This document shows, piece by piece, positions 4,914 to 63,851 of a stretch of 64,000 bases of DNA (position 1 is the stretch's first letter; the number at the start of each line of letters is the position of its first letter). The notes below the pieces were generated by a model. It made no database searches. It was given only the letters and a program-made list of their open reading frames with translations, and was not told where the DNA came from. The stretch lies in the NCBI RefSeq assembly GCF_003019035.1, contig NZ_CP027447.1; one strand, written 5' to 3'. A program made the position numbers and the translations under genes. The stretch is from Escherichia coli (lineage in GTDB: Bacteria > Pseudomonadota > Gammaproteobacteria > Enterobacterales > Enterobacteriaceae).

Positions 4914-5920
4914 ATAATATCCAACTCGCCCACGGTAGCGGCGGCCAGGCGATGCAGCAATTAATCAACAGCCTGTTTATGGAAGCCTTTGCCAACCCGT
5001 GGCTGGCAGAACAGGAAGACCAGGCGCGCCTTGATCTGGCGCAACTGGTGGCGGAAGGCGACCGTCTGGCGTTCTCCACCGACAGTTACGTTATTGACCC
5101 GCTGTTCTTCCCTGGCGGTAATATCGGCAAGCTGGCGATTTGCGGCACCGCGAATGACGTTGCGGTCAGTGGCGCTATTCCGCGCTATCTCTCCTGTGGC
5201 TTTATCCTCGAAGAAGGATTGCCGATGGAGACACTGAAAGCCGTAGTGACCAGCATGGCAGAAACCGCCCGCGCGGCAGGCATTGCCATCGTTACTGGCG
5301 ATACTAAAGTGGTGCAGCGCGGCGCGGCAGATAAACTGTTTATCAACACCGCTGGCATGGGCGCAATTCCGGCGAATATTCACTGGGGCGCACAAACGCT
5401 AACCGCAGGCGATGTTCTGCTGGTGAGTGGAACTCTCGGCGACCACGGGGCGACTATCCTTAACCTGCGTGAGCAGCTGGGGCTGGATGGCGAACTGGTC
5501 AGCGACTGTGCGGTACTAACGCCGGTTATTCAGACGCTGCGTGACATTCCCGGCGTGAAAGCGCTGCGTGATGCCACCCGTGGTGGAGTGAACGCGGTAG
5601 TTCATGAGTTCGCGGCAGCCTGCGGTTGTGGTATTGAAATTTCAGAAGCGGCACTGCCGGTTAAACCTGCTGTACGCGGCGTTTGCGAACTGCTGGGACT
5701 GGACGCCCTTAATTTTGCCAACGAAGGCAAACTGGTGATCGCCGTTGAACGCAACGCAGCAGAGCAAGTGCTGGCGGCGTTACATTCCCATCCATTGGGA
5801 AAAGACGCGGCGCTGATTGGTGAAGTGGTGGAACGTAAAGGTGTTCGTCTTGCCGGTCTGTATGGCGTGAAACGAACCCTCGATTTACCACACGCCGAAC
5901 CGCTTCCGCGTATATGCTAA
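4910..5920 (+). CDS. hypE: Hydrogenase maturation factor HypE (336 aa, AIR-synthase-like)
   Basis: 336 aa ending ...PRIC, overlaps hypD stop. Confidence 0.95.
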   Translation: MNNIQLAHGSGGQAMQQLINSLFMEAFANPWLAEQEDQARLDLAQLVAEGDRLAFSTDSYVIDPLFFPGGNIGKLAICGTANDVAVSGAIPRYLSCGFILEEGLPMETLKAVVTSMAETARAAGIAIVTGDTKVVQRGAADKLFINTAGMGAIPANIHWGAQTLTAGDVLLVSGTLGDHGATILNLREQLGLDGELVSDCAVLTPVIQTLRDIPGVKALRDATRGGVNAVVHEFAAACGCGIEISEAALPVKPAVRGVCELLGLDALNFANEGKLVIAVERNAAEQVLAALHSHPLGKDAALIGEVVERKGVRLAGLYGVKRTLDLPHAEPLPRIC

Positions 5921-5993
5921 TAAAATTCTAAATCTCCTATAGTTAGTCAATGACCTTTTGCACCGCTTTGCGGTGCTTTCCTGGAAGAACAAA

Positions 5994-8072
5994 ATGTCAT
6001 ATACACCGATGAGTGATCTCGGACAACAAGGGTTGTTCGACATCACTCGGACACTATTGCAGCAGCCCGATCTGGCCTCGCTGTGTGAGGCTCTTTCGCA
6101 ACTGGTAAAGCGTTCTGCGCTCGCCGACAACGCGGCTATTGTGTTGTGGCAAGCGCAGACTCAACGTGCGTCTTATTACGCGTCGCGTGAAAAAGACACC
6201 CCCATTAAATATGAAGACGAAACTGTTCTGGCACACGGTCCGGTACGCAGCATTTTGTCGCGCCCTGATACGCTGCATTGCAGTTACGAAGAATTTTGTG
6301 AAACCTGGCCGCAGCTGGCCGCAGGTGGACTATACCCCAAATTTGGTCACTATTGCCTGATGCCACTGGCGGCGGAAGGGCATATTTTTGGTGGCTGTGA
6401 ATTTATTCGTTATGACGATCGCCCCTGGAGCGAAAAAGAGTTCAATCGTCTGCAAACATTTACGCAGATCGTTTCGGTCGTCACCGAACAAATCCAGAGC
6501 CGCGTCGTTAACAATGTCGACTATGAGTTGTTATGCCGGGAGCGCGATAACTTCCGCATCCTGGTTGCCATTACCAACGCGGTGCTTTCCCGCCTGGATA
6601 TGGACGAACTGGTCAGCGAAGTCGCCAAAGAAATCCATTACTACTTCGACATTGACGATATCAGCATCGTCTTACGCAGCCACCGTAAAAACAAACTCAA
6701 CATCTACTCCACTCACTATCTTGATAAACAGCATCCCGCCCACGAACAGAGCGAAGTCGATGAAGCCGGAACCCTCACCGAACGCGTCTTCAAAAGTAAA
6801 GAGATGCTGTTGATTAATCTCCACGAGCGGGACGATTTAGCCCCCTATGAACGCATGTTGTTCGACACCTGGGGCAACCAGATTCAAACCTTGTGCCTGT
6901 TACCGCTGATGTCTGGCGACACCATGCTGGGCGTGCTGAAACTGGCGCAATGCGAAGAGAAAGTATTTACCACTACCAATCTGAGCTTACTGCGCCAGAT
7001 TGCCGAACGTGTGGCAATCGCTGTCGATAACGCCCTCGCCTATCAGGAAATTCATCGTCTGAAAGAACGGCTGGTTGATGAAAACCTCGCCCTGACCGAG
7101 CAGCTCAACAATGTTGATAGTGAATTTGGCGAGATTATTGGCCGCAGCGAAGCCATGTACAGCGTACTTAAACAAGTTGAAATGGTGGCGCAAAGTGACA
7201 GTACCGTTCTGATCCTCGGTGAAACTGGTACAGGTAAAGAGCTGATTGCCCGCGCGATCCATAATCTCAGTGGGCGTAATAATCGCCGCATGGTCAAAAT
7301 GAACTGCGCGGCGATGCCTGCCGGATTGCTGGAGAGCGATCTATTTGGTCATGAGCGTGGGGCTTTTACCGGTGCCAGCGCTCAGCGCATTGGTCGTTTT
7401 GAACTGGCGGATAAAAGCTCACTATTCCTCGATGAAGTGGGCGATATGCCGCTGGAGTTACAGCCGAAGTTGCTGCGTGTATTACAGGAACAGGAGTTTG
7501 AACGTCTTGGCAGCAACAAAATCATTCAGACGGACGTACGTTTAATTGCCGCGACTAACCGCGATCTGAAAAAAATGGTCGCAGACCGAGAGTTCCGTAG
7601 CGATCTCTATTACCGCCTGAACGTATTCCCGATCCACCTGCCGCCACTACGCGAGCGTCCGGAAGATATTCCGCTGCTGGCGAAAGCCTTTACCTTCAAA
7701 ATTGCCCGTCGTCTGGGGCGCAATATCGACAGCATTCCTGCCGAGACGCTGCGCATCCTGAGCAACATGGAATGGCCGGGCAACGTGCGTGAGCTGGAAA
7801 ACGTCATCGAGCGCGCGGTATTGCTGACACGTGGCAACGTGCTGCAGCTGTCATTGCCTGATATTGCTTTACCAGAACCTGAAACGCCGCCTGCCGCAAC
7901 GGTTGTCGCTCAGGAGGGCGAAGATGAATATCAGTTGATTGTTCGCGTGCTGAAAGAAACTAACGGCGTGGTTGCCGGACCTAAAGGCGCTGCGCAACGT
8001 CTGGGGCTGAAACGCACGACCCTGCTGTCACGGATGAAGCGACTGGGAATTGATAAATCGGCATTGATTTAA
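5994..8072 (+). CDS. fhlA: Formate hydrogenlyase transcriptional activator FhlA (sigma-54 enhancer-binding protein, 692 aa)
   Basis: GAF domains plus AAA+ sigma-54 activator motifs (GETGTGKE, GAFTGA) and C-terminal HTH; start at MSYTPMSD. Confidence 0.95.
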   Translation: MSYTPMSDLGQQGLFDITRTLLQQPDLASLCEALSQLVKRSALADNAAIVLWQAQTQRASYYASREKDTPIKYEDETVLAHGPVRSILSRPDTLHCSYEEFCETWPQLAAGGLYPKFGHYCLMPLAAEGHIFGGCEFIRYDDRPWSEKEFNRLQTFTQIVSVVTEQIQSRVVNNVDYELLCRERDNFRILVAITNAVLSRLDMDELVSEVAKEIHYYFDIDDISIVLRSHRKNKLNIYSTHYLDKQHPAHEQSEVDEAGTLTERVFKSKEMLLINLHERDDLAPYERMLFDTWGNQIQTLCLLPLMSGDTMLGVLKLAQCEEKVFTTTNLSLLRQIAERVAIAVDNALAYQEIHRLKERLVDENLALTEQLNNVDSEFGEIIGRSEAMYSVLKQVEMVAQSDSTVLILGETGTGKELIARAIHNLSGRNNRRMVKMNCAAMPAGLLESDLFGHERGAFTGASAQRIGRFELADKSSLFLDEVGDMPLELQPKLLRVLQEQEFERLGSNKIIQTDVRLIAATNRDLKKMVADREFRSDLYYRLNVFPIHLPPLRERPEDIPLLAKAFTFKIARRLGRNIDSIPAETLRILSNMEWPGNVRELENVIERAVLLTRGNVLQLSLPDIALPEPETPPAATVVAQEGEDEYQLIVRVLKETNGVVAGPKGAAQRLGLKRTTLLSRMKRLGIDKSALI

Positions 8073-32394: not shown

Positions 32395-33094
32395 CGGTTT
32401 ATCCCCGCTGGCGCGGGGAACACTTGCAGTAGCACTTCAGTTCTGTTTTTGTCACCGGTTTATCCCCGCTGGCGCGGGGAACACGCCTGATAGCGCCTCC
32501 AGCCTTCGCCCTGGTGCGGTTTATCCCCGCTGGCGCGGGGAACACTGCATAGCTTTGGCTTCTTCTTTAACGGACGCCGGTTTATCCCCGCTGGCGCGGG
32601 GAACACAGTACCACTGTTTTTTCTTCGGTGCCCAGCCACGGTTTATCCCCGCTGGCGCGGGGAACACGTTTACATATTTATACCTACACGCTCAATCGAC
32701 GGTTTATCCCCGCTGGCGCGGGGAACACCCGTTTTCGATTGAACAGAAAGATTTCAACACCGGTTTATCCCCGCTGGCGCGGGGAACACAATACAGACCC
32801 GTTGTACGGTTTTTGCGAGCACGGTTTATCCCCGCTGGCGCGGGGAACACTTGGAAATCACCTCCCCGATCTCCGCGCTGTCCGGTTTATCCCCGCTGGC
32901 GCGGGGAACACCCCTCGGCAAAAATGCCTTTTTCCTCGTCGGTCGGTTTATCCCCGCTGGCGCGGGGAACACCACGGGCCAGACGGTAGCAACAATTTTA
33001 CGGCCGGTTTATCCCCGCTGGCGCGGGGAACACCAAAACGGAAGTGCCAGTATTGCCAGAATCACCGGTTTATCCCCGCTGGCGCGGGGAACAC
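32395..33094 (-). CRISPR. CRISPR array 1 (type I-E): 12 identical 29-bp repeats CGGTTTATCCCCGCTGGCGCGGGGAACAC (plus-strand reading), 11 spacers of 32 bp; leader at high-coordinate end
   Basis: Repeat starts at 32395, 32456, 32517, 32578, 32639, 32700, 32761, 32822, 32883, 32944, 33005, 33066; perfect 61-bp periodicity. Confidence 0.98.
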
Positions 33095-33190
33095 ACTAAG
33101 CATACGTATCTGTTTTTAAACAATTTTATTCCACATCAACAATCTACCAACTAAATTCAAACATTTCCTTATTTTTAAAGAACGGGTAAC
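33095..33190 (-). other. CRISPR leader of array 1 (AT-rich, contains CAATCTACCAACT motif shared with array 2 leader)
   Basis: AT-rich sequence between last repeat and cas2 stop; motif recurs downstream of array 2. Confidence 0.6.
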
Positions 33191-34400
<1,210 letters not shown>

Positions 34401-34404
<4 letters not shown>

Positions 34405-35051
34405 GCCTCTGCTCCAGGTTTGATCAGCATCAGACCACAACCGAACGCCCGGCTTTTGCCATACCCCTGACTGAGACGTTGCAGAAATAACCCAGGATCG
34501 GTGACCGTAAGCATCCCCGTATAATCCACGCTACTGAACTGGATCAGTTGCCGGGAGTTTTCCCGCCGCAGTTGCTGTTGTCGGTAGGCATCAACCGAAG
34601 TATCCAGCAGTGTAAAACCGCTTCTCTCCCCCTGCGCTGCCAGCCAGTCCAGCGCCGCCTGTTGTTGATGCAACCAGACATTTCTTCCTTCCGCCTGCCC
34701 CCTCACCTGCCGTTTCGCCTCCATCAGCAGATCGTGGCGCTTACCCGCTTTACAGACTGTTGGATTCGCCCGCAGGTTGAAACAAAGGGATTGTCCGGTA
34801 TGCAGTTCAGGCGCAAATGACCGGCATTCGATGGTGAACGTTTCACTTTCCGCCGGGCGTTCCTGCGACAGGACAAAAAAGCGAAACGCGCCCTGGAGTT
34901 CTTCCCGACGATAAAGAAATTGCCTTTCTTTGCCGCCAGGAAAAAGATCCCACAGCCACTGATGCATCACATATTCACCGCGATCCACCAAATGCAGCAA
35001 CTGCGCAGGCGAAAGCTGACCGGTATGTAAGGTTATTCTTGAGAGGTACAT
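34401..35051 (-). CDS. cas6e: Cas6e (CasE/Cse3) crRNA endoribonuclease
   Basis: ~216 aa starting MYLSRITL, C-terminal G-rich loop GYGKSRAFGCGLM; position in operon. Confidence 0.85.
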
Positions 35052-35779
35052 GGTTCCTCCTTGCTGAGCCACGGCCCCTGATTGACGGTGCGTTCCCCAA
35101 ACAGCCACTGCTGACGATTTAAAGGAACATCCCGGCGGCGTAATATTTTGCTCGAGACCAGGCCATCGTGCTCCCCTTCCCACCAGCATTCATCCTGAAG
35201 TTTCGGGAGTGAGACTTTCAGTTCGTGGAAACGATCCTGATACTGTTGGTATGCGTTACGTAAGGCATCAGACGCGTTACCTTCAAGCAGTAACGGCGCA
35301 AGGGGTAATGCCAGCGGATGGCTTTTTCGCCCCAGATAAAGCGGAAAAGCCGGATGGCGTAAACCTTCCTGCAACTGTTCGAGGCTGTAAGGCGCATCAG
35401 CTGTTGTTGCCACGGCCACCATCCACCAGGCATCGGTGTAGTAGTCGCGCCGGGAGATAATCGCGCTTAGAAGATCAGGGTCGCTCAACTCTTCGCGACG
35501 GCTGAAATAACGCGCTTTACGCACCTCTTTTGGCATCTGGACCGTGTGATAATCCCGTGCCCAGCGCGGGTTACGGCTGGCGCAAACCACCAGTGAATAG
35601 TGGCGATTAAACGCGTTTAAGCATTCGGTGTCATCACGCCGTATCCCTACCCCGGCAGCCAGCAGCCCCAGCAATGCTGAACGCGAAGGCAGTTCATGGG
35701 TATGACGCACCTCACCGGGTGCATCAACGCCCCAGGATGCCATTGGCCCATGAAGCTGAAAAATCAGATATTGGCTCAT
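35033..35779 (-). CDS. cas5: Cas5e (CasD) Cascade subunit
   Basis: 248-aa ORF with Cas5 N-terminal signature LHGPMASWG; operon position. Confidence 0.85.
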   Translation of the reverse strand: MSQYLIFQLHGPMASWGVDAPGEVRHTHELPSRSALLGLLAAGVGIRRDDTECLNAFNRHYSLVVCASRNPRWARDYHTVQMPKEVRKARYFSRREELSDPDLLSAIISRRDYYTDAWWMVAVATTADAPYSLEQLQEGLRHPAFPLYLGRKSHPLALPLAPLLLEGNASDALRNAYQQYQDRFHELKVSLPKLQDECWWEGEHDGLVSSKILRRRDVPLNRQQWLFGERTVNQGPWLSKEEPCTSQE

Positions 35780-35789
35780 AAGCCGCCCC

Positions 35790-36845
35790 TTACGCGCAGA
35801 TAAAGTCCAGCACGTCCTTCATGCTTCCCTGTTTGTTCATCACGTCAAAACTTGCGCATTCGGTCTTCTGTTCGTAAACCGTATTCATGTTTTCGCGAAG
35901 CGTTGTAATACGCTGCACCGCCACATCTAACTGACGTGTGCCATTAATGGGTTCATAGAAAGCCGCCGCCAGAGAACGCGGTTGTTCGGTGCCTTTTTCT
36001 GCCAGCGCCCAGGAGGCGTAGGCACGGCTGGCAAAGCTGTTTTGTTTACCGGTTGGGGAAACTTTAAACGCTGCTTCCGTAAAGGCGCGCAGGGTCTGAT
36101 TAGCTAATGCTTCGTCACCGCCGAGGTTTTCGACCAGCAGATCTTTATCAATGCAGATATAGGTGTAGAACAGCGCAGAACCAAATCCAGTTTCACCAAG
36201 ATGCCCTGCACCAGCATCTTCAGAGGCCTGGCGCAAATCATCAACGGCGGTGAAAAAATCATCTTCGACAATCGTTTCACTGACACCAAATGCATGCGCG
36301 ACCTGGCAGGCGGCTTCAACATTAAATTCGGGTTTATTCGCCAGCATACGACCAAACATAGCGATATCTACCGCCATGCGATCTTTACGTAACAAAGCGA
36401 GATCTTCCTCTTTTGGCGCGCGCTTTTCTTCGGCCAGTTGATGGGCCAGCGCTTTTACGGCGTCAAATTCTGCCGGGCTGATATGGACGAGCTGTTCAGT
36501 TTCGGCGTTAGTGAGCGGATCTTTTGGTTTTTTGTCGTTTTTAGCTTTCCCAAGATAATCCGCAATTTTTGCCGCCCATTCGATGGCTTTTTTCTCTTCG
36601 ATGCCTTTCTCAATCAGGATAGTTGCCGCCTCACGCGCAATACGCCCACTGCGAATACCAATATGGCCCGCCAGTGCCTGTTCAAAAAGTGCAGAAGTGC
36701 GCCACGCACGTTTCAGACTTTGCGAGGAAACGCGCAGACGCGTTGCTCCACCCAGCACCACGGTTTTCGGCGCACCGGTGTCATCACGGTTAAGGTTGGC
36801 TGCAGGGTAAGCGGTTAACAAATGAAGCTGAATAAATGTCGTCAT
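35790..36845 (-). CDS. cas7: Cas7e (CasC/Cse4) Cascade backbone subunit
   Basis: 351 aa, operon position between cse2 and cas5. Confidence 0.85.
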   Translation of the reverse strand: MTTFIQLHLLTAYPAANLNRDDTGAPKTVVLGGATRLRVSSQSLKRAWRTSALFEQALAGHIGIRSGRIAREAATILIEKGIEEKKAIEWAAKIADYLGKAKNDKKPKDPLTNAETEQLVHISPAEFDAVKALAHQLAEEKRAPKEEDLALLRKDRMAVDIAMFGRMLANKPEFNVEAACQVAHAFGVSETIVEDDFFTAVDDLRQASEDAGAGHLGETGFGSALFYTYICIDKDLLVENLGGDEALANQTLRAFTEAAFKVSPTGKQNSFASRAYASWALAEKGTEQPRSLAAAFYEPINGTRQLDVAVQRITTLRENMNTVYEQKTECASFDVMNKQGSMKDVLDFICA

Positions 36846-36859
36846 GAGATAGTCCTTTA

Positions 36860-37396
36860 TTAATTTTGTTCGTTATCGGCGTCGCCAGCCTGGTAATATT
36901 CCAGCGCCCAGCGGATACGGATAAATTCTGTTGGCCGCTGCTGACGGCGGTGATGGTTGAGCAGGTCGTCACTCTCCTGGCACCAGCGGAAAATATCGTC
37001 TGCCAAAGAGATAAGATTGACGGAACCGTTTAATAATTTGACCGCGCGACGTAACTGGCGCAGTAAATCATCCGGCGTTTTGACTGCCGACAGGCGAGTA
37101 AAACGCCCCTCAGACATTACCGCCGCCAACTGCGCGGCAAAAGGCTGCCGTTCATCAATGGCTTTTACATTGGCGGCAACGGCGGCAACCAGCGCCAGTG
37201 CGGTAAAACGCCACTCCTGTGATTCAATTTTCCACAACGTGTGGGTCTGCATCAGCAGAGAACGAAAACCTTCTGACAGACAAACATCATTAACCGTTGT
37301 GCTACGCCGCAGACTGGCACGATTGCCGCGTTTTTCCTGCAACTCTTCGAGCCATTTACGCAGCGTGGCTTTGTGCTCCTCTTTTACAATACTCAT
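36860..37396 (-). CDS. cse2: Cse2 (CasB) Cascade small subunit
   Basis: 178-aa helical ORF, operon position. Confidence 0.82.
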   Translation of the reverse strand: MSIVKEEHKATLRKWLEELQEKRGNRASLRRSTTVNDVCLSEGFRSLLMQTHTLWKIESQEWRFTALALVAAVAANVKAIDERQPFAAQLAAVMSEGRFTRLSAVKTPDDLLRQLRRAVKLLNGSVNLISLADDIFRWCQESDDLLNHHRRQQRPTEFIRIRWALEYYQAGDADNEQN

Positions 37397-38961
37397 TCAG
37401 CAGCCTCCTGCTTTTTCTCCCTGGCGGCTTTAGCACTTTGCTTCTCCGCCGATGTTGTAAAATATTTCTTGCGCGCGGTCATGACGCGTTTCAAATCAAC
37501 GGGCTCATAAGGATTGGTGAATACCCGCTCGTCAAAATCCTGACGCGCGAATAACCACATTTCCTTTTGCCATTTGCTGAGTAATTCATCCGGCTCCTGA
37601 CCTTCTTCAATTTGACGCACTAACCTCAGGAAGCGATGCTGAGTTTTGTTCCAAAAGTCGATATCCACAAAACTGAAATCACCCCGTGCACCTTTTGGAT
37701 CGGAGAACCATGCTTCTTTCAATGCACTCCGTAACAGACTTAGAATCCGTGAAGCCGTTTGCGCAGCCAGCCGCAGCTTTGGTATCTGGCCTTCTTTTTT
37801 ATTGAGCAGCAGCGGGAAATGGTGTTCGTACCAACAGCGCGCTTTCATGTTGTCAAAATCATAACCAAATCCCCATAGGCCCACTTTTGCCTGTTTCAGA
37901 CTGCTGGCATTAAAGAGTTTCACCACCAGCGCGGGAAGTTCCGTATTGTTTTCTGATTTACCCGTTTCGATAAGGCCTAACCAGTCGCGCCAGATTAAAC
38001 CGCCCGGTTGTGGTTTAACGGAGTAAAACTCGCCACCCTCTTTAAGTGGTACACGGTAAGGCGTTAAGGGATGCTGCCACATGGCATAATTGGCACCATA
38101 ATTTTTGGTCGTCATCAGGCTCAGGAGCGCGTCGTTCTGCTCGTCGCAAATATCGCAGTTGCCGACTGTCGTGGTATTAAAATCAATACGTATACGCCGC
38201 GGCATTCCCCAGTACGCCTGGAGTTTATTGACCTGATCATGGGTTACCACCGCACCGGCCAGTTCGCTGGTACGCGTCGGGCCTAGCCAGGGGAAAATCA
38301 GATCGTCAAATTTTTTGGGTAGCGGTAAGTCGGCTTCATCCTGCGGCATCACGTTGAGCCACAGTTTGCGCCACAAGGGTGTTTGTTGATTGCCCTGATA
38401 TTCCTGTAATTCAATGAGAGTCGTCATCGGCCCACCGCCGCGTAAACCGGTGCGATAGCCTTTGCCGCCCGCGGGTGCATTCAACTGTAAAGAGAACAAG
38501 GCCAATGCTAAGCAATGGGGGCACAGATATTCCGTTACACCCCGCTTGATAAAATGGTCTTTATTAAACTTCGTCGTTTGAAAGCCGGGAATCTCAGGCA
38601 GTAGCGAAGCGACCGGAACTTTATCTCCCGTGAGCGCCTCAAAATCCTGCATAAATGAAGATGAATCAGGCCCAAACTGGAAAGCATGTTCTAAAGACAG
38701 CAATGCTTCTCGTAGCTTTTCAGCTTCCAGTCCGTCTTCCCAGATATCATCCCAACGACGATGATCTTTTGGCGCGAAGCTGGTTTGTAGTAGTCCCAGC
38801 AAAAACTGCCAGGCCGCACCTTGTAAATCTGCTCGCGGTGCGGCGATATCGACAACATTCTCATCAGCCAGATCGACTGATGCCAGCTTGCCTGTCGTTC
38901 CGTCTTTGAAACGAACAGGCAACCACGGGGTTGTCAGAAGTGAAAACGAGTTCATACGCAT
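37393..38961 (-). CDS. cse1: Cse1 (CasA) Cascade large subunit
   Basis: 522 aa, operon position directly after cas3; called from size and position (not the K-12 sequence variant as recalled). Confidence 0.82.
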   Translation of the reverse strand: MRMNSFSLLTTPWLPVRFKDGTTGKLASVDLADENVVDIAAPRADLQGAAWQFLLGLLQTSFAPKDHRRWDDIWEDGLEAEKLREALLSLEHAFQFGPDSSSFMQDFEALTGDKVPVASLLPEIPGFQTTKFNKDHFIKRGVTEYLCPHCLALALFSLQLNAPAGGKGYRTGLRGGGPMTTLIELQEYQGNQQTPLWRKLWLNVMPQDEADLPLPKKFDDLIFPWLGPTRTSELAGAVVTHDQVNKLQAYWGMPRRIRIDFNTTTVGNCDICDEQNDALLSLMTTKNYGANYAMWQHPLTPYRVPLKEGGEFYSVKPQPGGLIWRDWLGLIETGKSENNTELPALVVKLFNASSLKQAKVGLWGFGYDFDNMKARCWYEHHFPLLLNKKEGQIPKLRLAAQTASRILSLLRSALKEAWFSDPKGARGDFSFVDIDFWNKTQHRFLRLVRQIEEGQEPDELLSKWQKEMWLFARQDFDERVFTNPYEPVDLKRVMTARKKYFTTSAEKQSAKAAREKKQEAAE

Positions 38962-39044
38962 CCTCTCGTAAAAAAGACCATCCCTGGTCGGTTGTCCATC
39001 CTTTTTTGTGTATCAACTATTCAGAGAATCCTGTCGCAGACATC

Positions 39045-41744
39045 TCAACCAACCTTGCCAATCAATCCCTCCGTAGCCGAATACCCACAACTTTCGTCAT
39101 CGGTGACTAAAATCACGTTTGCCATCTCCGGATCATGCCGCTGTTCAACGCACCACTGCCTGAACGCATCCCCTTCCAGTAAAGAAAACTCATCCCGATG
39201 TTTTTTCCACCAGCTTCGGCGCACTCTGACAACGCTCATTTCCCATGCGTGTGCACCTGTGGCATAAGGCTTCACCACACCGTCAATACAGGTAGCCAGC
39301 CACAGGGAAACAGACTCTTCAGCCAGACGTGTCGACAGTTTTTCCGGGAGGTAATCGTTGATATTGGCGGCATAGCCGGGCCTGAAGTTCAGTACAAACT
39401 TTTTAGCCATTGCGCGATCGCAGTAATATTTGCCCACTTGCTCCTGCTCGCTGCGGGCAAACCCTTCCGGCATTACTACGTCCTCACCGTAGACTGATTC
39501 AATCAGAAGCCGGGCTGAGTGTGGCATCTGAATAGCACCTTGCTCACGCAGCACACGCTGCGTCAGCCAGATTCGCCCATGATCGGGATAGACAAATGCA
39601 CTGTTACGCATGGCACTGCCAAACCATTCGTCACCCGGAGAGTCGTCCCAGACGGGGGCCAGAATCAGCAATTCAGGAGGGTGACGCTCGTCTTTACCGT
39701 CACGCTTTAACTGGCCATTCATATCGCGGATATGTCGCTGTAATCGCCCTGCTCGCTGGATCAGTAAATCAACAGGGGCAAAGTCGGAAATCATTTCGTC
39801 CAGGTCGCAGTCAACGCTCTGCTCCAGGACTTGAGTACAAATGAGGACTTTTCCGGCACGCTGTGAACAGTCTTCTTTACCAAAGCGTGCCAGCGTCTCC
39901 GTTTCAATTCGCTGGCGATCGCTAAAAGCAAAGCGGCTATGAAAAAGTGAAAGGCTGGAAGCAGGAATGACGCCGCGGGCAAGTAACTGACGATGAACCT
40001 GGATGGCGTCATCGACAGAATTTCGGATCCAGGCGATACATTTCCCCTGACTTACCGCCGATTCGATACGCGCAATACACTCTTGTTCGCTATGAAGCCA
40101 ACCCACACTCACGCTGCGCTCAACGTCTTTGCGCGTCGCTACCCGGTGTGAATGCACATCGGATTTCGTAACGTGCGTCAGCCAGGGGTAATCATCCTTT
40201 TCCAGGAACGGAGCTTCTTGCTGGCCCTCTATACCACGCGCAAAGGCAGCAACGAGTTTGTCGCGCTGCTGTTGAGATAACGTGGCAGAAAGCAAAATGA
40301 CGCTGTTTCCGCCACGCGCCTGCCGCTCGATCAGCCCTTCAAGAATGCATGACATGTAAGCGTCACAGGCATGGATCTCATCAGCCAGCAGGATTTTGTT
40401 ACTCAGTCCCAGAAGCCGCAGATTATTATGTTTGAACGGCATCACAGCCATCATCGCCTGATCCAGCGTGCCGACGCCAATTTCAGCCAGTAGCGCCTTC
40501 TTGTTACTGTCGGCAAACCAGGCCGCACATCCCTGACTGCACGTTTGTTCATCCGGTTCTTCTGACCCGACTAAATCACCGGACCAGAGTGATTCATTAA
40601 AGCGGTCCATTAATGTTCGGGCACTGTGTGCCAGCACCAGGCTGGGGCGGGACTCTGGCGAATAGAAAGCAAGCCAGGTTTTGACCAGTCGATCGTACAT
40701 GGCATTGGCCGTTGCCATTGTTGGCAGGCCAAAAAACAAACCCTGCGCTTTCCCCGCAGCCATCAACCTGTGCGCCAGGATAAGCGCCGCTTCTGTTTTA
40801 CCTGCGCCGGTTACATCCTCCAGAATAAATAACTGTGGTCCCGGCTGGCTGATATCCAGATCCAGCACCTTTTGCTGTAGCGGTGTCGGATTCTCAATAA
40901 AAGGAAACAGCGTATTAATTCCGGTGAAAGGCGCGCTTTCTGCTTTTGGAGGAAAGACGGTTAAGGCGTTTTGAGCCTGAACTAAAGTTTTCTGCCAGTA
41001 ATCTTCAATATCCATTGTCTGTGCGACGCGTGGAAAATATCGCGTTGACGATCCCGTCCAGTCTGCAAGTACGACGGTTGCAGAGATATACCAGGAAAGT
41101 TGTTTTATAAGTTCAACGCCCTCGTCATCATCCCAGAATGTGGGGATCTCTATGAGCGGAAACAGTACCTTGATTGCAAGGAGAAAATCTCGTGCGGCAC
41201 CTTTGTCTTCAGGCAGAAAATTATCCAGTTCATCCATACGCTCAGGGGGTCGACCATGATGCCCGGTAGTCATGGGCATCCACATCTCCATCACCCGTTT
41301 AAGTTTGCGCGGAGAGAGTGAAGATGAAGGAAGCAACTCCTGACATTCACTTAAATAATGGTTCCACAACCAGTAGCCCAGCGTTGAATGAGAGATCTTT
41401 TCGTAATTCTTTCTTGCGCCTTCCGGAACCTTGAGTTGTGGGTGCAGGTAAAGTTGCTGAAAAGAGCGGGCAAATTTTCCAATATCGTGCCAGCACAGCA
41501 GCCAGGCGAAAAATTGTGCTGCCAGCTCCGTGTCAGCGAAACCTAATTGACGAAAATAGTCAGCCAGTCCGAAGCAATTGCTTTTAACCATTAAATAGCC
41601 CATCGCGGCTACATCCAGCGAATGCCAGCAAAGAAGGTGATAGTCGTCACCACCCTCTTTCTCGCCGCGTCGGGTTTTTCCCCAGAAATCAAAAAAAGTC
41701 ACAATATTTTTATCCTTCAGTAAACTTAAAGGATATTTACGCAT
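39045..41744 (-). CDS. cas3: Cas3 HD nuclease/SF2 helicase (type I signature, 899 aa)
   Basis: N-terminal HD domain, DEAD-box helicase motifs (GAGKTE, DEIH). Confidence 0.92.
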   Translation of the reverse strand: MRKYPLSLLKDKNIVTFFDFWGKTRRGEKEGGDDYHLLCWHSLDVAAMGYLMVKSNCFGLADYFRQLGFADTELAAQFFAWLLCWHDIGKFARSFQQLYLHPQLKVPEGARKNYEKISHSTLGYWLWNHYLSECQELLPSSSLSPRKLKRVMEMWMPMTTGHHGRPPERMDELDNFLPEDKGAARDFLLAIKVLFPLIEIPTFWDDDEGVELIKQLSWYISATVVLADWTGSSTRYFPRVAQTMDIEDYWQKTLVQAQNALTVFPPKAESAPFTGINTLFPFIENPTPLQQKVLDLDISQPGPQLFILEDVTGAGKTEAALILAHRLMAAGKAQGLFFGLPTMATANAMYDRLVKTWLAFYSPESRPSLVLAHSARTLMDRFNESLWSGDLVGSEEPDEQTCSQGCAAWFADSNKKALLAEIGVGTLDQAMMAVMPFKHNNLRLLGLSNKILLADEIHACDAYMSCILEGLIERQARGGNSVILLSATLSQQQRDKLVAAFARGIEGQQEAPFLEKDDYPWLTHVTKSDVHSHRVATRKDVERSVSVGWLHSEQECIARIESAVSQGKCIAWIRNSVDDAIQVHRQLLARGVIPASSLSLFHSRFAFSDRQRIETETLARFGKEDCSQRAGKVLICTQVLEQSVDCDLDEMISDFAPVDLLIQRAGRLQRHIRDMNGQLKRDGKDERHPPELLILAPVWDDSPGDEWFGSAMRNSAFVYPDHGRIWLTQRVLREQGAIQMPHSARLLIESVYGEDVVMPEGFARSEQEQVGKYYCDRAMAKKFVLNFRPGYAANINDYLPEKLSTRLAEESVSLWLATCIDGVVKPYATGAHAWEMSVVRVRRSWWKKHRDEFSLLEGDAFRQWCVEQRHDPEMANVILVTDDESCGYSATEGLIGKVG

Positions 41745-41938: not shown

Positions 41939-42091
41939 CTACTTCTTCGATTCGTAAGCGAGAACCGCCTTAAACTCCATACCACGTTCTCTGATACTCA
42001 ACTCACACAACGAGTCGCCTACCATCAGCGTGAATCCCAGTACTGTAAAACACAGCACTATGATTGCCACAAGGGCATATTTTGTCAGCAT
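41939..42091 (-). CDS. hokX: Hok/Gef-family type I toxin (50 aa), likely hokX of the hokX-sokX locus
   Basis: Own translation [52 protein letters not shown] helix + conserved LCE...AYES Hok signature; GGAGG RBS; below 60-aa cutoff so absent from ORF track. Confidence 0.8.
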
Positions 42092-42355
42092 GTCTTGCCT
42101 CCCTGCAAAGAAGAGACTAACATTCGAATTGTTTGGGTTCGAACGCTGGCCTCAGGTTGATAGAAATATCGCCTGGGGCTTTTGTCCATCTGGAACCTCG
42201 CGAATGCTTAACGCCAGACAGCCTCAAGCACCCAACGCCATTCTATACCTGTTAATTCTTCCAACGACGTTCACGTTTAAAATCAGGAATGCTGCTCGCA
42301 AAATAAAAACGCCCCCATCATTTCTGACAGAGGCGTTTAATTTATCCGGCAATAT

Positions 42356-56670: not shown

Positions 56671-58149
56671 ATGTCGAAAAAATACATCATAGGGATTGAT
56701 GGCGGAAGTCAGAGCACAAAAGTGGTGATGTATGATCTGGAAGGTAATGTGGTTTGCGAAGGCAAAGGCTTATTGCAGCCGATGCACACGCCAGATGCCG
56801 ATACCGCAGAACATCCTGACGACGATTTATGGGCATCATTATGTTTTGCCGGTCACGATTTGATGAGTCAGTTTGCCGGAAATAAAGAAGATATTGTCGG
56901 CATTGGTCTGGGATCCATCCGTTGCTGCCGTGCGTTATTGAAAGCCGATGGCACACCAGCTGCGCCGTTGATTAGCTGGCAGGATGCACGCGTTACACGC
57001 CCTTACGAACATACGAATCCTGACGTGGCATATGTCACCTCTTTTTCGGGTTATCTGACGCATCGCTTAACCGGCGAGTTTAAAGACAATATCGCCAACT
57101 ATTTTGGTCAGTGGCCGGTGGATTATAAGACCTGGGCATGGAGCGAAGATACCGCGGTAATGGAGAAGTTTAATATTCCCCGACAGATGCTTTTTGATGT
57201 GCAAATGCCGGGCACTGTTCTTGGGCATATCACTCGTCAAGCCGCGCTGGCGACACATTTCCCGGCTGGGCTGCCGGTTGTTTGTACCACCAGTGATAAA
57301 CCGGTAGAAGCTCTGGGAGCCGGATTACTGGATGATGAAACGGCGGTGATTTCTCTTGGCACCTACATCGCGCTGATGATGAACGGTAAAGCACTGCCGA
57401 AAGATCCGGTAGCGTACTGGCCGATTATGTCTTCTATTCCGCAAACCTTGCTGTATGAAGGTTACGGTATCCGCAAAGGCATGTGGACGGTGAGCTGGCT
57501 ACGCGACATGCTAGGCGAGTCGTTAATTCAGGATGCCAAAGCACAGGATCTTTCACCGGAAGATTTGCTCAACAAAAAAGCGTCTTGTGTGCCGCCTGGC
57601 TGTAATGGTCTGATGACGGTGCTGGACTGGCTGACCAATCCGTGGGAACCATACAAACGCGGGATTATGATCGGCTTTGATTCCAGCATGGATTACGCAT
57701 GGATATATCGTTCGATACTGGAAAGCGTGGCGCTGACGCTGAAGAACAATTACGACAATATGTGTAATGAAATGAATCACTTTGCAAAGCATGTGATCAT
57801 TACTGGCGGCGGTTCGAACAGCGATCTGTTTATGCAGATTTTTGCCGACGTGTTCAACCTTCCGGCACGCCGTAACGCCATTAATGGTTGTGCAAGTCTG
57901 GGGGCAGCGATCAATACGGCGGTAGGTCTGGGGCTATACCCGGATTACGCAACGGCTGTCGACAAAATGGTTCGCGTGAAAGATATCTTTATGCCTGTTG
58001 AGAGCAACGCCAAACGCTACGACGCGATGAATAAAGGCATTTTCAAAGACCTAACCAAACACACTGATGTGATCCTGAAAAAATCGTATGAAGTGATGCA
58101 TGGTGAGCTGGGGAATGAAGATTCGATCCAGAGCTGGTCGAATGCGTAA
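56671..58149 (+). CDS. ygcE: FGGY-family carbohydrate kinase (492 aa)
   Basis: FGGY kinase N-terminal motif IGIDGGSQSTK, 492 aa. Confidence 0.9.
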   Translation: MSKKYIIGIDGGSQSTKVVMYDLEGNVVCEGKGLLQPMHTPDADTAEHPDDDLWASLCFAGHDLMSQFAGNKEDIVGIGLGSIRCCRALLKADGTPAAPLISWQDARVTRPYEHTNPDVAYVTSFSGYLTHRLTGEFKDNIANYFGQWPVDYKTWAWSEDTAVMEKFNIPRQMLFDVQMPGTVLGHITRQAALATHFPAGLPVVCTTSDKPVEALGAGLLDDETAVISLGTYIALMMNGKALPKDPVAYWPIMSSIPQTLLYEGYGIRKGMWTVSWLRDMLGESLIQDAKAQDLSPEDLLNKKASCVPPGCNGLMTVLDWLTNPWEPYKRGIMIGFDSSMDYAWIYRSILESVALTLKNNYDNMCNEMNHFAKHVIITGGGSNSDLFMQIFADVFNLPARRNAINGCASLGAAINTAVGLGLYPDYATAVDKMVRVKDIFMPVESNAKRYDAMNKGIFKDLTKHTDVILKKSYEVMHGELGNEDSIQSWSNA

Positions 58150-58196
58150 GTGAGGAAGACCGGGCGGGAAACTGCCCGGCCTGAACATACCTGAAT

Positions 58197-58334
58197 GGTT
58201 ATCCCCGCTGACGCGGGGAACATAAGTTCGACAACTTAAAAAATGATAACAAGTCCGGTTTATCCCCGCTGATGCAGGGAACATAATAAAAACTTTAACT
58301 AGTTCGGTTTATCCCTGTTTTTACAAGGAATATT
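58197..58334 (-). CRISPR. Degenerate CRISPR remnant: three decayed repeats (…GGGGAACAT, …GCAGGGAACAT, …CAAGGAATAT) with one 32-bp and one 20-bp spacer
   Basis: Repeat-like units at 58197-58224, 58257-58285, 58306-58334 with accumulating mismatches. Confidence 0.7.
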
Positions 58335-58786
58335 AACTACACTCGATGTCTTTAGAATAAAAGACAATACGAATCGCACTTTATCAATTTTCACTTAAAG
58401 TATGAACTGGATATCTTTATTCATAAGAACTATTCATCAACAGCCTATAGAGGCGGTTATGTAAAACCACTCATTAGCCTCAAAACAAAGACAAATTTCC
58501 AGATTTATTACTTAATCAATGAATAACAAGCTTAAAAAATACACTGTTATTCTAAAGAAAAAATTAACAGGCATTAATTAATATTAAAAAAATAATAGAT
58601 TAAAATTTCTTAACGGTTTAAGGATTATACAAATAACACTTTGATTAAATTTGATTTTTTGTATCGATAATTGTGAACTTATCTGGCATGGAGAACTATT
58701 TTGAACATGAGGTGTTATGTGGATATGTTGCTTATTACAAGTACAGCTAATATAAAAACTTGAGAAAGAGATAACGGGTTATATGG

Positions 58787-59059
58787 TGGTTTATCCCCGC
58801 TGGTGCGGGGAACTCTTGGCATAGGCGCTATAGCGGCGCTCTGTGTCCGGTTTATCCCCGCTGGCACGGGGAACTCGTTGGTGCCGTTGTTGTAACCGTA
58901 GAAACCGACGGTTTATCCCCGCTGACGTGGGGAACTCGCAGGTCAACACGGGCGATAAACCCGGCTGACCGGTTTATCCCCGCTGACGTGGGGAACTCGA
59001 TAAGCAGATTGCAGAACTACAGGCGAAGGACGGTTTATCCCCGCTGACGTGGGGAACTC
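58787..59059 (-). CRISPR. CRISPR array 2 (type I-E repeats, 5 repeats / 4 spacers of 32 bp); repeat variants ending AACTC; leader at high-coordinate end
   Basis: Repeats at 58787, 58848, 58909, 58970, 59031; R1 TGG…GCTGGTGCGGGG, R2 …GCTGGCACGGGG, R3-R5 …GCTGACGTGGGG. Confidence 0.93.
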
Positions 59060-59250
59060 TCTAAACATAACCTATTATTAATTAATGATTTTTTAAGCCA
59101 GTCACAATCTACCAACTTTACAGGATCACACAAACAACACATCCATTATGTTAAAGAACACTTAATCCATTGATTAAAAAAGTAAATATTTAAAATAACT
59201 CTATACCCACTAAAATCTACCAAACTTTACCGCAATAATTTTCACTCCAA
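59060..59250 (-). other. Putative leader of CRISPR array 2 (AT-rich, shares CAATCTACCAACT motif with array 1 leader)
   Basis: Motif at the same distance (~60 nt) from the last repeat in both arrays. Confidence 0.5.
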
Positions 59251-59397
59251 CGAAAAATTAACGCCACAGAATTTGTAGAGAATGATAATGATTAGCCCAG
59301 AATGGGCAAAATGGAGTTTTTTCAGAGGCGACAAAGAATATAAATAAGTGGAAGTCTTTACAGGTTCCACCCATTTATAACGCTTATAAATGTTTAA

Positions 59398-60241: not shown

Positions 60242-60844
60242 ATGCTCAGGATATTCATCGTAATTATATTTATTGTCAATTTATCAGGCTGTGGATATAA
60301 CGATATTCAAACCTATGATGAGCAGGTTAACGCCTCCTGGTCTGAGGTATTGAATCAATATCAACGTCGCGCCGATCTTATTCCTAATCTTGTCGCCAGT
60401 ATTAAAGGTTATTCCAGCCATGAACAAGAGGTACTGGAAGCCGTAACATTGGCACGTAGCCAGGCTAATCGCGCCAGTAGCGATCTTCAGCAAGCTCCGG
60501 GAGATGCGCAAAAATTACAAGCCTGGCAACAAGCCCAGGCGCAGGTGTCTCGCACTCTCGGTCAGTTAACGATAATTAGTGAACGTTACCCTGAGTTAAA
60601 AGCTCAGGAACTCTATCAAAACTTAATGGTACAGCTCGAAGGAAGTGAAAATAGAATTGCCGTTGCGCGAGGAAGATATATTAAAGCCATTGAACAATAT
60701 AATGTCACTATCCGCAAATTCCCCGCTGTATTAACCGCAAAGGTCATGGATTACACACCAAAGAAAAATTATTTGCCGGATGATGTCACCGCAGTAAGTA
60801 AAGCCCCAACAATAGATTTTAGCCAGAATGCTAATGCGCATTAA
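60242..60844 (+). CDS. LemA-family lipoprotein (200 aa)
   Basis: Lipobox LSGC, LemA-like helical region; RBS present; AT-rich. Confidence 0.85.
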   Translation: MLRIFIVIIFIVNLSGCGYNDIQTYDEQVNASWSEVLNQYQRRADLIPNLVASIKGYSSHEQEVLEAVTLARSQANRASSDLQQAPGDAQKLQAWQQAQAQVSRTLGQLTIISERYPELKAQELYQNLMVQLEGSENRIAVARGRYIKAIEQYNVTIRKFPAVLTAKVMDYTPKKNYLPDDVTAVSKAPTIDFSQNANAH

Positions 60845-60857
60845 GCGGGGAAGTTCT

Positions 60858-61751
60858 ATGCGAAATTTTATCTTCCTTATGGCTTTCTTCTGTTCATCTG
60901 TGTTTGCCACACAAATTCCAGTACCTGAATCCCCCAAGTATGTGAATGACTTAACCGGCACATTAACAAACAGCGAAGTAAACACCCTGACCAACCAGAT
61001 TAAAGCCCTGACGCAAAAAAACCACGCACAGTTGGTCGTGTTAGTGGTTGATACAACAGGCGATGAAACCATCGAGCAGTACGCAACGCGGGTATTCGAT
61101 AGCTGGAAACCGGGTGATAAAGACCGCGATGATGGCGTTCTACTGTTAGTCGCCTGGCAGGATCATACCGTGCGTATTGAAATCGGTTACGGACTGGAAG
61201 GTATTATTACGGATGCACAGTCCGGGAAAATTATTCGCAACAGTATTATTCCGGCATTTAAAAAAGGCGACCTGGCTGGTGGTTTACAAAAGGGGATCAA
61301 CGATATTGAAAGTCGCCTGACGGGGAATAATTCAGCAACGATAACACCGACCGATCACCCTTTGCCCTTTAGCGGTTGGTGGGCTTTGTTAGTCTGGGCG
61401 ATAATACTGACGTTTATTTCTGCCAGAGGATATATCAAAACGCTGGGACTGATTTGCTTCGCAGCTATTGTACTGGCCTTTGTTTTACCTATAGCAGGTT
61501 TCAGCGGAAGCTGGGGAGTGCTCGCAACATTACTCTGCTTCGCCACACCGTTCCTGGCTGTCGCCATCGCTTTTACTCCCTTCGGCAAAAAGGTTCGGGA
61601 TTCGATGCGTAATACCAACCAGCCATCACGCCATACAAGAAGTAATTCTTCCTCCCACTATTCGTCATCGTCATCCTCTTCATTCGACAATGACAATTTC
61701 CGCGGTGGTGGCGGTTCATCTGGTGGCGGTGGCGCTTCCGGACGCTGGTAA
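60858..61751 (+). CDS. TPM-domain (YgcG-like) membrane protein paralog 1 with Gly-rich C-terminal tail ...[16 protein letters not shown]
   Basis: Signal peptide, TPM domain, TM segment, Gly-rich tail; start at MRNFIFL. Confidence 0.8.
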   Translation: MRNFIFLMAFFCSSVFATQIPVPESPKYVNDLTGTLTNSEVNTLTNQIKALTQKNHAQLVVLVVDTTGDETIEQYATRVFDSWKPGDKDRDDGVLLLVAWQDHTVRIEIGYGLEGIITDAQSGKIIRNSIIPAFKKGDLAGGLQKGINDIESRLTGNNSATITPTDHPLPFSGWWALLVWAIILTFISARGYIKTLGLICFAAIVLAFVLPIAGFSGSWGVLATLLCFATPFLAVAIAFTPFGKKVRDSMRNTNQPSRHTRSNSSSHYSSSSSSSFDNDNFRGGGGSSGGGGASGRW

Positions 61752-61765
61752 CAAAAGGAATTGAT

Positions 61766-62914
61766 ATGCGTATTTTTCTCTTACTTCTGATGCTATGCGG
61801 TTTTCAGGTATTCGCTGAACAATTGCCTTCAGTAACTGACTTAACCGGGACATTAACGACAGAAGAACAAACTGCTTTAAATCAACAATTACAGACTCTC
61901 GAGCAGCAAAACCACTTCCAGGTGGCCGTGTTGGTTACGCCGACTACAGGGGGCAAAAACATTAAACTTGCAGCCTCGCAGAGATACGGGTTATATCACT
62001 GGAAACCCGTTGGAGAGAAGCGATATGGCGAAGGTATCTTAATTCTCGTCGTATGGCCGGAAGGGCTGGCGTCAATGAAGATTGGACATGGACTGGAACA
62101 GATGTTGCCGCCAGAACAAGCTGCGCAAATTGTTCGTTACCATATGCAGCCAGAATTCGAAAAAAGCAATCTCTTTGCTGGATTAACGGGCGGAATTGAA
62201 AGCATCGCACAGTTTACCCATATCAAAGCGAACCTTAGCCCTTTGGATGCTTTAGCCAATCATCTGTTTGCTAATCCACAACGTTCGCTGCCATGTCTTG
62301 CCTGGACACTGCTGATGATCGTTGCCATCGTTGTCCTCTGGCGATTTACCAGCCGTCCTGGGCCTGGCATATGGATGATATCGATGATTACCCCTATGGT
62401 CTGGTTTTTCTTCTTTCAGGATGATGTCATCATTCGGCGGGTGTCGATCGTTTGTTTTAGTTTATTGTTAGCAACAACCTGCTGGCAGCGTCTCGCGGTA
62501 GTTTTTAATATGTGCCGCGCATTTCCTATGATGCTGGCCCCCAAAAATAAAAACACTAAAGTGAAAAAACAAAAGAAGACCCAGCAATTTCCTGAATCAG
62601 GACGAAATTCATTGTTTGTCGTGATGCTGATAATTGTTGTGGGATGGTGCCTGGTGTTCGCCAGTAATAAAGATATTGCATTCATCTCAACAATTATTGG
62701 GTTAATTGATCATTTTATCGGCCCAATAACCATTGCTGGCATCGTTCTGCTGATCATTGTGGCCAAATTTACTGGCAATCTTAAACTGGGGTCAGGAGAA
62801 AAAAGCAACAGGAAAACGGGGAATCGTAATGCTCATTCTCGCTCTTCGTCGAAAAATTCTTTCCGCGGTGGCGGCGGTTCTTCAGGAGGCGGCGGTTCAT
62901 CCGACCGTTGGTGA
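61766..62914 (+). CDS. TPM-domain membrane protein paralog 2 with extended multi-TM C-terminal region and Gly-rich tail ...[15 protein letters not shown]
   Basis: ATG with AAGGAA RBS; TPM N-terminal domain similar to neighbours. Confidence 0.8.
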
Positions 62915-62919
62915 TCGTT

Positions 62920-63792
62920 ATGCGTATAATCCTTTTTCTACTCACTTTATGGTGCCTTCCTGTGCTTGCCCAGCAAATTGCTGTGCCGGAGCTGCGCCAA
63001 CAGGTGACCGATATTACTGGTACCTTAAGCACGTCTGAACAACAATCACTAACACAACAGCTGCAGGATATTACACAAAAAACACGGGCACAGGTCGCTG
63101 TATTAATAGTGCCATCCACCGGAGACGATTCTATTGAACAATATGCTACAAGAGTTTTTGACAATTGGCGTTTAGGAGATGCCAAACGTAATGATGGGAT
63201 ACTGATCATTGTTGCCTGGTCGGATCGTACTGTCCGCATCCAGGTAGGTTATGGGCTGGAAGAAAAGGTAACCGATGCTCTGGCTGGCAATATCATCCGT
63301 AGCATCATGATACCCGCCTTTAAAAAACAAAAATTAGCTAAGGGATTAGAATTAGCTATAATCGCTTTGAATAACCAACTCACTTCACAACACCAATATT
63401 CGTCTAATCCTTCAGAAAGTGAATCAGCGTCTTCCAGTGATCATTACTACTTTGCTATTTTTTGGGTATTTGCAGTGATGTTCTTCCCTTTCTGGTTTTT
63501 TCATCAAGGCAATAATTTTTGTCGGGCATTTAAAAGCAGTGTTTGTATTTCAACAGTCTATCTTATAGATTTATTCCTGTTCTCCGATCAAACTTTTTCC
63601 ATTGCTGTATTTTCCTTCTTTTTTACTTTCACCACCATTATGGTCTTTACCTGTTTATGTGTACTTCAGAAAAAAGCATCTGGTAGAAGTTATCATTCAG
63701 ACAACAGCGGTTCCGGTGGCGGCTCAAGTGGCGGCGGATTTAGCGGCGGGGGCGGTTCTTCTGGCGGTGGCGGCGCGTCCGGTCGCTGGTAA
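62920..63792 (+). CDS. ygcG: TPM-domain membrane protein (290 aa), likely the YgcG ortholog adjacent to eno
   Basis: 290 aa from ATG 62920, TPM domain, tail [15 protein letters not shown]; position immediately upstream of eno. Confidence 0.75.
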
Positions 63793-63851
63793 CTCAACCA
63801 TAAAAAATGCCAGCCCGAAGGCTGGCATTTTTAAATCAGATAAAGTCAGAC

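Follow-up and report, generated by a model that had tools for sequence, protein, structure and literature searches.

CRISPR2.2 and the AT-rich separator of the Escherichia coli CRISPR-II locus: ancestry, composition, and conservation

The CRISPR-II locus of Escherichia coli includes a mini-array, CRISPR2.2, whose name, like that of the neighboring CRISPR2.3, is said to come from Diez-Villasenor et al., so that the element has reportedly been named since 2010. Other authors call CRISPR2.2 part of CRISPR2 or CRISPR II, and it is mentioned routinely in E. coli CRISPR typing papers. Published descriptions give it three repeats and two invariable spacers and place it 0.5 kb from CRISPR2.3 (PMC4489801, PMC3903273, PMC10910852). 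Some strains have a single fused array, CRISPR2.2-3, in place of two arrays 0.5 kb apart (PMC3903273), and the separator has been worded as a sequence that “splits” the array (PMC10910852). Leaders are recognized solely beside arrays 2.1 and 2.3, and BL21 derivatives are reported to carry CRISPR2.2 (PMC3737337).

We analyzed a window of 64,000 nucleotides from E. coli (RefSeq assembly GCF_003019035.1, contig NZ_CP027447.1), in which a first-pass annotation had drawn attention to repeat-like units and AT-rich DNA just after ygcE. This feature is the CRISPR2.2 mini-array with the 0.5-kb AT-rich separator of the CRISPR-II locus, an already known element. According to the annotation of an identical RefSeq record and of K-12, it is located between ygcE and ygcF/queE, on the ygcE side. 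The flanking genes, the three repeats, the two nonvarying spacers, and the roughly 0.5 kb of AT-rich DNA before CRISPR2.3 are the same as described, and a single fused array in some strains is likewise seen here; there are no differences, and as a feature CRISPR2.2 with its separator adds nothing new. The sole point of wider interest is the contrast in conservation between the remnant and its flanks. In the CRISPR-II literature covered, which did not extend to the original description of 2010, we found neither this comparison nor the genus-wide occurrence of the first repeat (R1), the 49-bp deletion variant, or the relic repeat in the tract that are reported below.

Our full explanation, to which we assign a probability of about 0.8, is that CRISPR2.2 and its separator comprise an ancestral terminal repeat (R1) and very old trailer-end units, that the AT-rich tract is partly decayed array, and that the R1-R3 block with the next ~105 bp is under selection.

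Layout and orientation of the locus

The 1.35-kb ygcE-queE interval is 100% identical to that of E. coli SCU-301 and is present in 5,421 of 5,426 complete genomes. Its features are listed in Table 1.

Table 1. Features between ygcE and queE in the window
Feature	Position	Strand	Remarks
ygcE	56671-58149		Stop at 58149
G+C-rich hairpin	58158-58181		Just 3' of the ygcE stop codon; sequence, predicted stem; also in Citrobacter (locus L010), without CRISPR there
R1, terminal (leader-distal) type I-E repeat, 28 nt	58196-58223	-	TGGTTATCCCCGCTGACGCGGGGAACAT; 24/29 to consensus; 1-nt deletion in 3' handle
S1, invariant spacer, 32 bp	58224-58255	-	Identical in 4,048/4,062 genomes
R2, repeat	58256-58284	-	24/29 to consensus; AUAAACCG handle intact
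S2, short spacer, 20 bp	58285-58304	-	Possibly a partial copy of the S1 3' end
R3, most degenerate repeat	58305-58333	-	18/29 to consensus
AT-rich tract, 453 bp	58334-58786		27.4% GC (51.5% for the whole window)
AT-rich tract, conserved proximal part	58334-58440		0/105 differences among five diverse E. coli strains
AT-rich tract, variable core	58441-58724		About neutral rate, with indels; weak repeat-like 29-mer at 58670-58698
Probable remnant of a decayed repeat-spacer unit, adjoining array 2.3	58725-58786	-	Clear in lineage L006, barely detectable in the window
CRISPR2.3 array, 5 repeats and 4 spacers of 32 bp	58787-59059	-	Annotated CRISPR in the identical RefSeq record
Leader 2.3, true leader, 338 bp, AT-rich, up to the queE stop codon	59060-59397	-	ACAATCTACCAACT block at 59104-59117

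The first-pass annotation had reported three repeat copies with spacers of 32 and 20 bp, followed by about 450 bp of extremely AT-rich DNA. All of these elements lie within 1 nt of where it had put them, and the length and composition of the tract agree. Its wording “progressively degenerate” suits R3, which is clearly worse, but not R1 and R2, which match the consensus (CGGTTTATCCCCGCTGGCGCGGGGAACTC) equally well. R1, R2, and R3 have the same orientation. Measured against a 61-bp period with 32- to 33-bp spacers, R1 to R2 fits (60 nt, with the 32-bp spacer), whereas R2 to R3 is off (49 nt, with the 20-bp spacer). In accordance with the 29-nt palindromic-stem consensus of type I-E, a 7-bp hairpin is predicted for each of the three repeats in the crRNA sense. 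The 11 changes that separate R3 from the consensus all raise A+T (ten from G/C to A/T and one from T to A). Alignment across strains, which the annotation had proposed as a check, finds the CRISPR2.2 block orthologous and at the same place in 4,123 of the 5,426 complete E. coli genomes.

On the plus strand, the type I-E repeats of the arrays appear as the reverse complement of their crRNA sense, which means that reading proceeds on the minus strand, away from queE and in the direction of ygcE. This puts the AT-rich tract at the old (trailer) end of array 2.3. The tract had been described as lying “ahead” of that array, a position that belongs instead to the leader beside queE. On the plus strand, the ACAATCTACCAACT block stands at -45 to -58 from the first repeat in leader 2.3, and it stands at the same distance in leader 2.1 (33095 onward), the leader of the cas-linked array, where it occupies 33139-33152. 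It corresponds to the conserved leader region at -44 to -59 (Yoganand et al., PMC5224486; for leader 2.3, see also PMC3903273), and its position coincides with that of the integrase-anchoring region that type I-E leaders are reported to conserve. Apart from this 14-mer at exactly equal distance, leader 2.3 does not resemble leader 2.1. The block is absent next to R3. Local alignment of the tract with leaders 2.3 and 2.1, scored against dinucleotide shuffles on both strands, gave no significant similarity (z ≤ 1.4) and thus no support for descent of the tract from a copy of either leader. A scan for the IHF consensus WATCAANNNNTTR at ≤1 mismatch gave no match, the two genuine leaders included, and because both of these failed, the scan does not discriminate.

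Several further observations were made in the window. The complete type I-E operon (33191-41744, minus strand) has full-length cas2, cas1, cas6e, cas5e, cas7e, cas11e, cas8e, and cas3 (PADLOC), and beside it lies the CRISPR2.1 array (32395-33094), with 12 repeats ending in AC. Between cas3 and cysH, Rfam identifies the sok antitoxin RNA over its full length (111 bits; 42076-42233, minus strand); thus, a hok/sok-type toxin-antitoxin locus adjoins the cas operon. Beyond queE (60242-63792), LemA-family and TPM-domain genes take the place of K-12 yqcG/ygcG, and three open reading frames (ORFs) there end in similar glycine-rich direct repeats (61702-61752, 62865-62915, and 63743-63793). Within array 2.3, the three leader-proximal repeats (58909-59059) have in common the variant CTGACGTGGGG (A17, T20), which places an A.C mismatch in the Cas6e hairpin in the crRNA sense (-9.7 versus about -15 kcal/mol). 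Its occurrence in three identical copies in a row at the leader end suggests that spacer acquisition propagated this variant.

The spacers of CRISPR2.2 show no turnover or strain polymorphism across more than 4,000 genomes. CRISPR2.2 no longer acquires spacers, as their invariance and the lack of an adjoining leader motif show. S1, R2, S2, and R3 are very old trailer-end units. S1 (GACUUGUUAUCAUUUUUUAAGUUGUCGAACUU on the minus strand) is single copy in the 4,048 of 4,062 genomes with an identical copy. It has no target in the phage and plasmid collections or elsewhere in E. coli genomes, in a search that would miss matches below about 28/32. BLAST of S1 through the tract against phages and plasmids returned only mislabelled E. 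coli chromosomes and 40-nt low-complexity matches (E about 0.5), so that the BLAST of the remnant spacers put forward in the first-pass annotation yielded no phage or plasmid protospacer.

S2, which had been called a truncated spacer, is indeed 20 bp long, but truncation may not be its origin. Anchored on the following repeat, it matches the last 20 nt of S1 at 12 of 20 positions (P ~0.02), R2 and R3 have in common the derived bases T18 and A21 and the AT end, and a search for repeat families recovered one (D2) with 49-nt spacing. From the match and the common derived bases, S2 with R3 may be a 49-bp partial duplication of the 3' part of S1 with R2; these data weakly suggest a partial duplication rather than a truncated acquisition.

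Ancestry of R1 and history of the locus

Loci from other species were retrieved through YgcE. The two genes also converge in Citrobacter, Klebsiella, Enterobacter, Cedecea, and others, where about 45 to 110 bp separate the stop codons of ygcE and queE; the hairpin is present there, and no CRISPR repeats lie between the two genes. An array in one Klebsiella locus (L034) lies about 2.5 kb beyond queE. This absence in other genera shows that the whole CRISPR-II locus is an insertion that arose within Escherichia, where a type I-E leader and array entered between these convergent genes.

The R1 junction “...CTGAATGGTTATCCCCGCTGACGCGG...” is common to E. albertii, E. whittamii, and the E. coli strains without the tract (seen in loci L003, L005, L008, and L040), and the 5' part of R1 is genus-wide in Escherichia. 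In E. albertii the junction is followed by two more repeats and a leader, and in E. whittamii it consists of a single repeat joined directly to the leader. The comparison shows R1 to be the original terminal repeat of the whole locus and not part of a separate array. Thus, of the earlier proposal that CRISPR2.2 is a fossil array apart from the live array, the relic type I-E repeats and the AT-rich gap of ~0.45 kb stand, but R1 belongs to the locus as its terminal repeat.

The block from S1 to the tract is missing in ~24% of E. coli genomes. The tract-less genomes have a hybrid repeat that keeps the 5' part of R1, including the one-base deletion and the GAC loop, and whose end follows the genome's own array (TC in E. 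coli, CC in E. albertii). Such a hybrid would result from recombination between R1 and a repeat of array 2.3, removing S1 through the tract. Single-array strains occur on both backgrounds beyond queE, yqcG/ygcG and LemA/TPM; therefore, the block was probably lost more than once. The opposite polarity, a gain of the S1-to-tract block in the E. coli lineage, is possible: E. albertii, E. whittamii, and MOD1-EC7003 all lack the tract, and a gain is not separable from repeated loss. Another kind of loss is seen in NZ_AP042535 (L004, 1748-2566), where IS1 directly adjoins the final ~60 bp of the AT-rich tract; ygcE, CRISPR2.2, and most of the tract are missing, which makes this an IS-associated deletion.

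A divergent lineage, CP089930 (L006; labelled E. coli E69), differs from E. coli by 25 to 29% at the four-fold sites of ygcE. Its locus (5470-6120) contains R1 without the one-base deletion, S1 with two changes, R3 directly thereafter, and a recognizably homologous tract. R3 is identical to that of the window at all 29 positions, and the missing 49 bp are exactly R2 and S2, a deletion that a crossover within the 11 bases common to the starts of R2 and R3 would yield. Because L006 carries R1, S1, R3, and the tract, the block is older than the split of this lineage from E. coli.

Origin of the AT-rich tract

L006 also bears on what the tract was. There, the first repeat of array 2.3 follows R3 at a distance of 489 nt (8 x 61 + 1), and the 29-mer that starts exactly 61 nt ahead of this first repeat, ATGTTATTTATTGCTGATACAGGGAACGA, matches R2 at 18 of 29 positions, including 14 of 15 in GCTGAT.CAGGGAAC (P ~0.0004 at this prespecified position). 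At the same position in the window, the 29-mer at 58725-58753 matches R2 at 14 of 29 positions, which is marginal (P ~0.04). Equally marginal is the best repeat-like 29-mer in the tract of the window (58670-58698; 15/29, P = 0.04). Its K-12 equivalent scores 17/29 and lies exactly 6 x 61 nt from R3; the P value is 0.001 against the consensus alone and becomes 0.14 when the AT-rich R3 may also serve as reference, and this 29-mer is only suggestive of a relic repeat. Autocorrelation along the tract gives no signal at a period of 61 bp (z = 0.2 at this lag). Taken together, at least 58725-58786 is probably a decayed repeat-spacer unit, and the remainder of the tract may also be decayed array. The end of the tract that adjoins array 2.3 would then be repeat-spacer DNA made AT-rich by mutation bias.

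A different origin would be an old leader: CRISPR2.2 would once have been an independent array, the tract would be its leader in degenerate form, and the leader and array of CRISPR2.3 would have been added later upstream. In the orientation of transcription the tract sits where a leader of R3-R1 would be, and its conserved part is the repeat-proximal ~105 bp. Moreover, R1, R2, and R3 end in AT, which differs from the TC of array 2.3 and the AC of array 2.1 and makes them a subfamily of their own, and the 336 bp to the left of the weak 29-mer (58334-58669) are about as long as leader 2.3 (338 bp). However, neither similarity to the two genuine leaders nor the ACAATCTACCAACT block is found in the tract. 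The leader-proximal repeat is normally the best preserved one, whereas R3, which adjoins the tract, is the most degenerate. The tract contains a relic repeat, and the published leaders are those of 2.1 and 2.3 alone (PMC3737337). We therefore consider an old leader possible but somewhat improbable.

Alternatively, foreign AT-rich DNA, such as a mobile-element remnant, might have been inserted into an ancestral continuous array and have split it. The very low GC content (27%) and the absence of the tract from E. albertii, E. whittamii, MOD1-EC7003, and 24% of E. coli genomes would agree with such an insertion, as would the published wording that the sequence “splits” the array (PMC10910852). 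Yet, apart from mislabelled E. coli chromosomes, the tract has no match among 50,697 phage and 72,556 plasmid records, nor does it have a second copy in any E. coli genome, including the 1,262 genomes that lack it at this locus. It contains no ORF of more than 31 amino acids, and a relic repeat at canonical spacing lies inside it. These findings make a foreign origin rather unlikely.

It is very unlikely that the tract hides a small protein gene or a small RNA of a known type. The first-pass annotation had raised the idea of a hidden small gene, and two features speak for it: 58334-58440 is strongly conserved, and the predicted fold of the tract's minus strand is somewhat more stable than those of shuffled sequences (z = -2.6). 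Nevertheless, no small ORF is conserved: in other strains or L006, each of the six ORFs of 20 to 31 amino acids is interrupted, is shifted in frame, or has changes that mostly alter the protein. Rfam 15 gives no match at the gathering score or at E ≤ 1, promoter-like sites occur at the chance level (5 found, 4.5 expected) with no terminator-like site, and the K-12 RefSeq record has no gene or RNA annotated between ygcE and queE. Finally, chance similarity of the repeat-like units, named at the outset as what would overturn the original claim and in line with the 18/29 score of R3 taken alone, has a negligible probability in view of the 24/29 scores of R1 and R2, the 17 occurrences of the consensus at ≤3 mismatches in the window versus none in 100 shuffles, the orientation and register that R1-R3 have in common with the arrays, their intact hairpins, and the orthology of the block in thousands of genomes and its continuity with the array in single-array strains.

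Conservation, possible function, and comparison with other CRISPR elements

Four 244-bp blocks were compared with 5,426 genomes, and the genomes with at least 99% identity were counted. The remnant block (58197-58440) reaches this level in 4,000 of 4,163 genomes (96%), compared with 161 of 5,371 for the last 244 bp of ygcE, 131 of 4,096 for the distal tract (58500-58743), and 2 of 4,561 for leader 2.3 (59100-59343); that is, the flanks do so in 3% or fewer. Likewise, five diverse strains show one difference in 58197-58440 versus 4 to 16 per 110 bp slightly further on. The four-fold sites of ygcE diverge by 10 to 17% among diverse E. coli strains, in agreement with a published dS of 0.148 for this gene (Higashi 2016, S2 Table). 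ygcE is unusually polymorphic within E. coli, with a mosaic pattern of divergence along its length. Erosion of the remnant is not under way at present, and its degenerate repeats are almost invariant across the species. Thus, erosion of the array, as proposed in the first-pass annotation, has left a trace in the relic that L006 carries 61 nt before array 2.3 but is not in progress now.

The same contrast extends to L006. R1-S1-R3 differs from E. coli by two substitutions and a 1-nt indel in ~90 aligned nt, and the 105 bp after R3 (58334-58440) diverge by 10.5% versus ~27% at neutral sites, while the rest of the tract is 23 to 31% different. The simplest reading is that purifying selection acts on 58196 to about 58440 and would hold the R1-R3 block and the next ~105 bp nearly invariant. 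An alternative is that a short homogenizing recombination tract produced this conservation; ygcE itself has a 100-bp window without variation among four strains.

If purifying selection is the cause, its probable target is the minus-strand transcript, since only in that sense do the repeats form intact hairpins. In the crRNA sense, R1, R2, and R3 are predicted to form the canonical 7-bp stem and tetraloop (-15.1, -12.1, and -7.9 kcal/mol, respectively). The R1 hairpin is perfect, the R2 stem is intact through a G.U pair, and the R3 stem is kept by two double changes and one G.U pair. On the plus strand, C.A mismatches fall in the stems of R2 and R3 (-8.7 and -4.4). By enumeration, random G/C-to-A/T changes would retain the R3 stem in ~16% of cases, and R2 adds a factor of only ~0.5, so retention of the R3 stem is only suggestive of selection.

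Two candidate roles fit the evidence. (i) The AUAAACCG handle of R2, the 32-nt S1, and the R1 hairpin have the layout of a normal crRNA, and they may give rise to a crRNA-like RNA, fixed throughout the species, that would have a housekeeping or regulatory target. (ii) The block, rich in hairpins, may insulate the ygcE and CRISPR2.3 transcripts, which converge, from each other. We only tentatively propose that 58196-58440 is a functional noncoding element under purifying selection across E. coli and a lineage at ~27% neutral divergence. The least variable 250 bp of this locus, which elsewhere ranks with the more polymorphic, H-NS-bound regions of the chromosome, are a relic with degenerate repeats and no acquisition. 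Were selection confirmed, E. coli would carry a fixed CRISPR-derived noncoding element.

For the tract itself, binding of H-NS, as the first-pass annotation surmised, is plausible. It has 27% GC and two 8/10 matches to the high-affinity H-NS motif TCGATAAATT, and ygcE is flagged as H-NS bound in chromatin immunoprecipitation (ChIP) data at the gene level, in a list that does not include the intergenic tract (Higashi 2016, S2 Table).

Like the terminal repeats of CRISPR arrays (Touchon & Rocha 2010), R1 is leader distal and altered at its outer end. However, the most degenerate copy here is not the terminal one but R3, which faces the AT-rich tract, and unlike degenerate terminal repeats generally, the CRISPR2.2 block as a whole is frozen, not drifting. 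CRISPR2.2 also resembles the orphan arrays without acquisition in E. coli strains that lack cas genes: it has neither a leader motif nor spacer turnover, and it too is kept in strains without cas genes. In contrast to orphan arrays, CRISPR2.2 lies ~17 to 25 kb from a complete type I-E operon in the same window, and it may therefore be processed by Cas6e.
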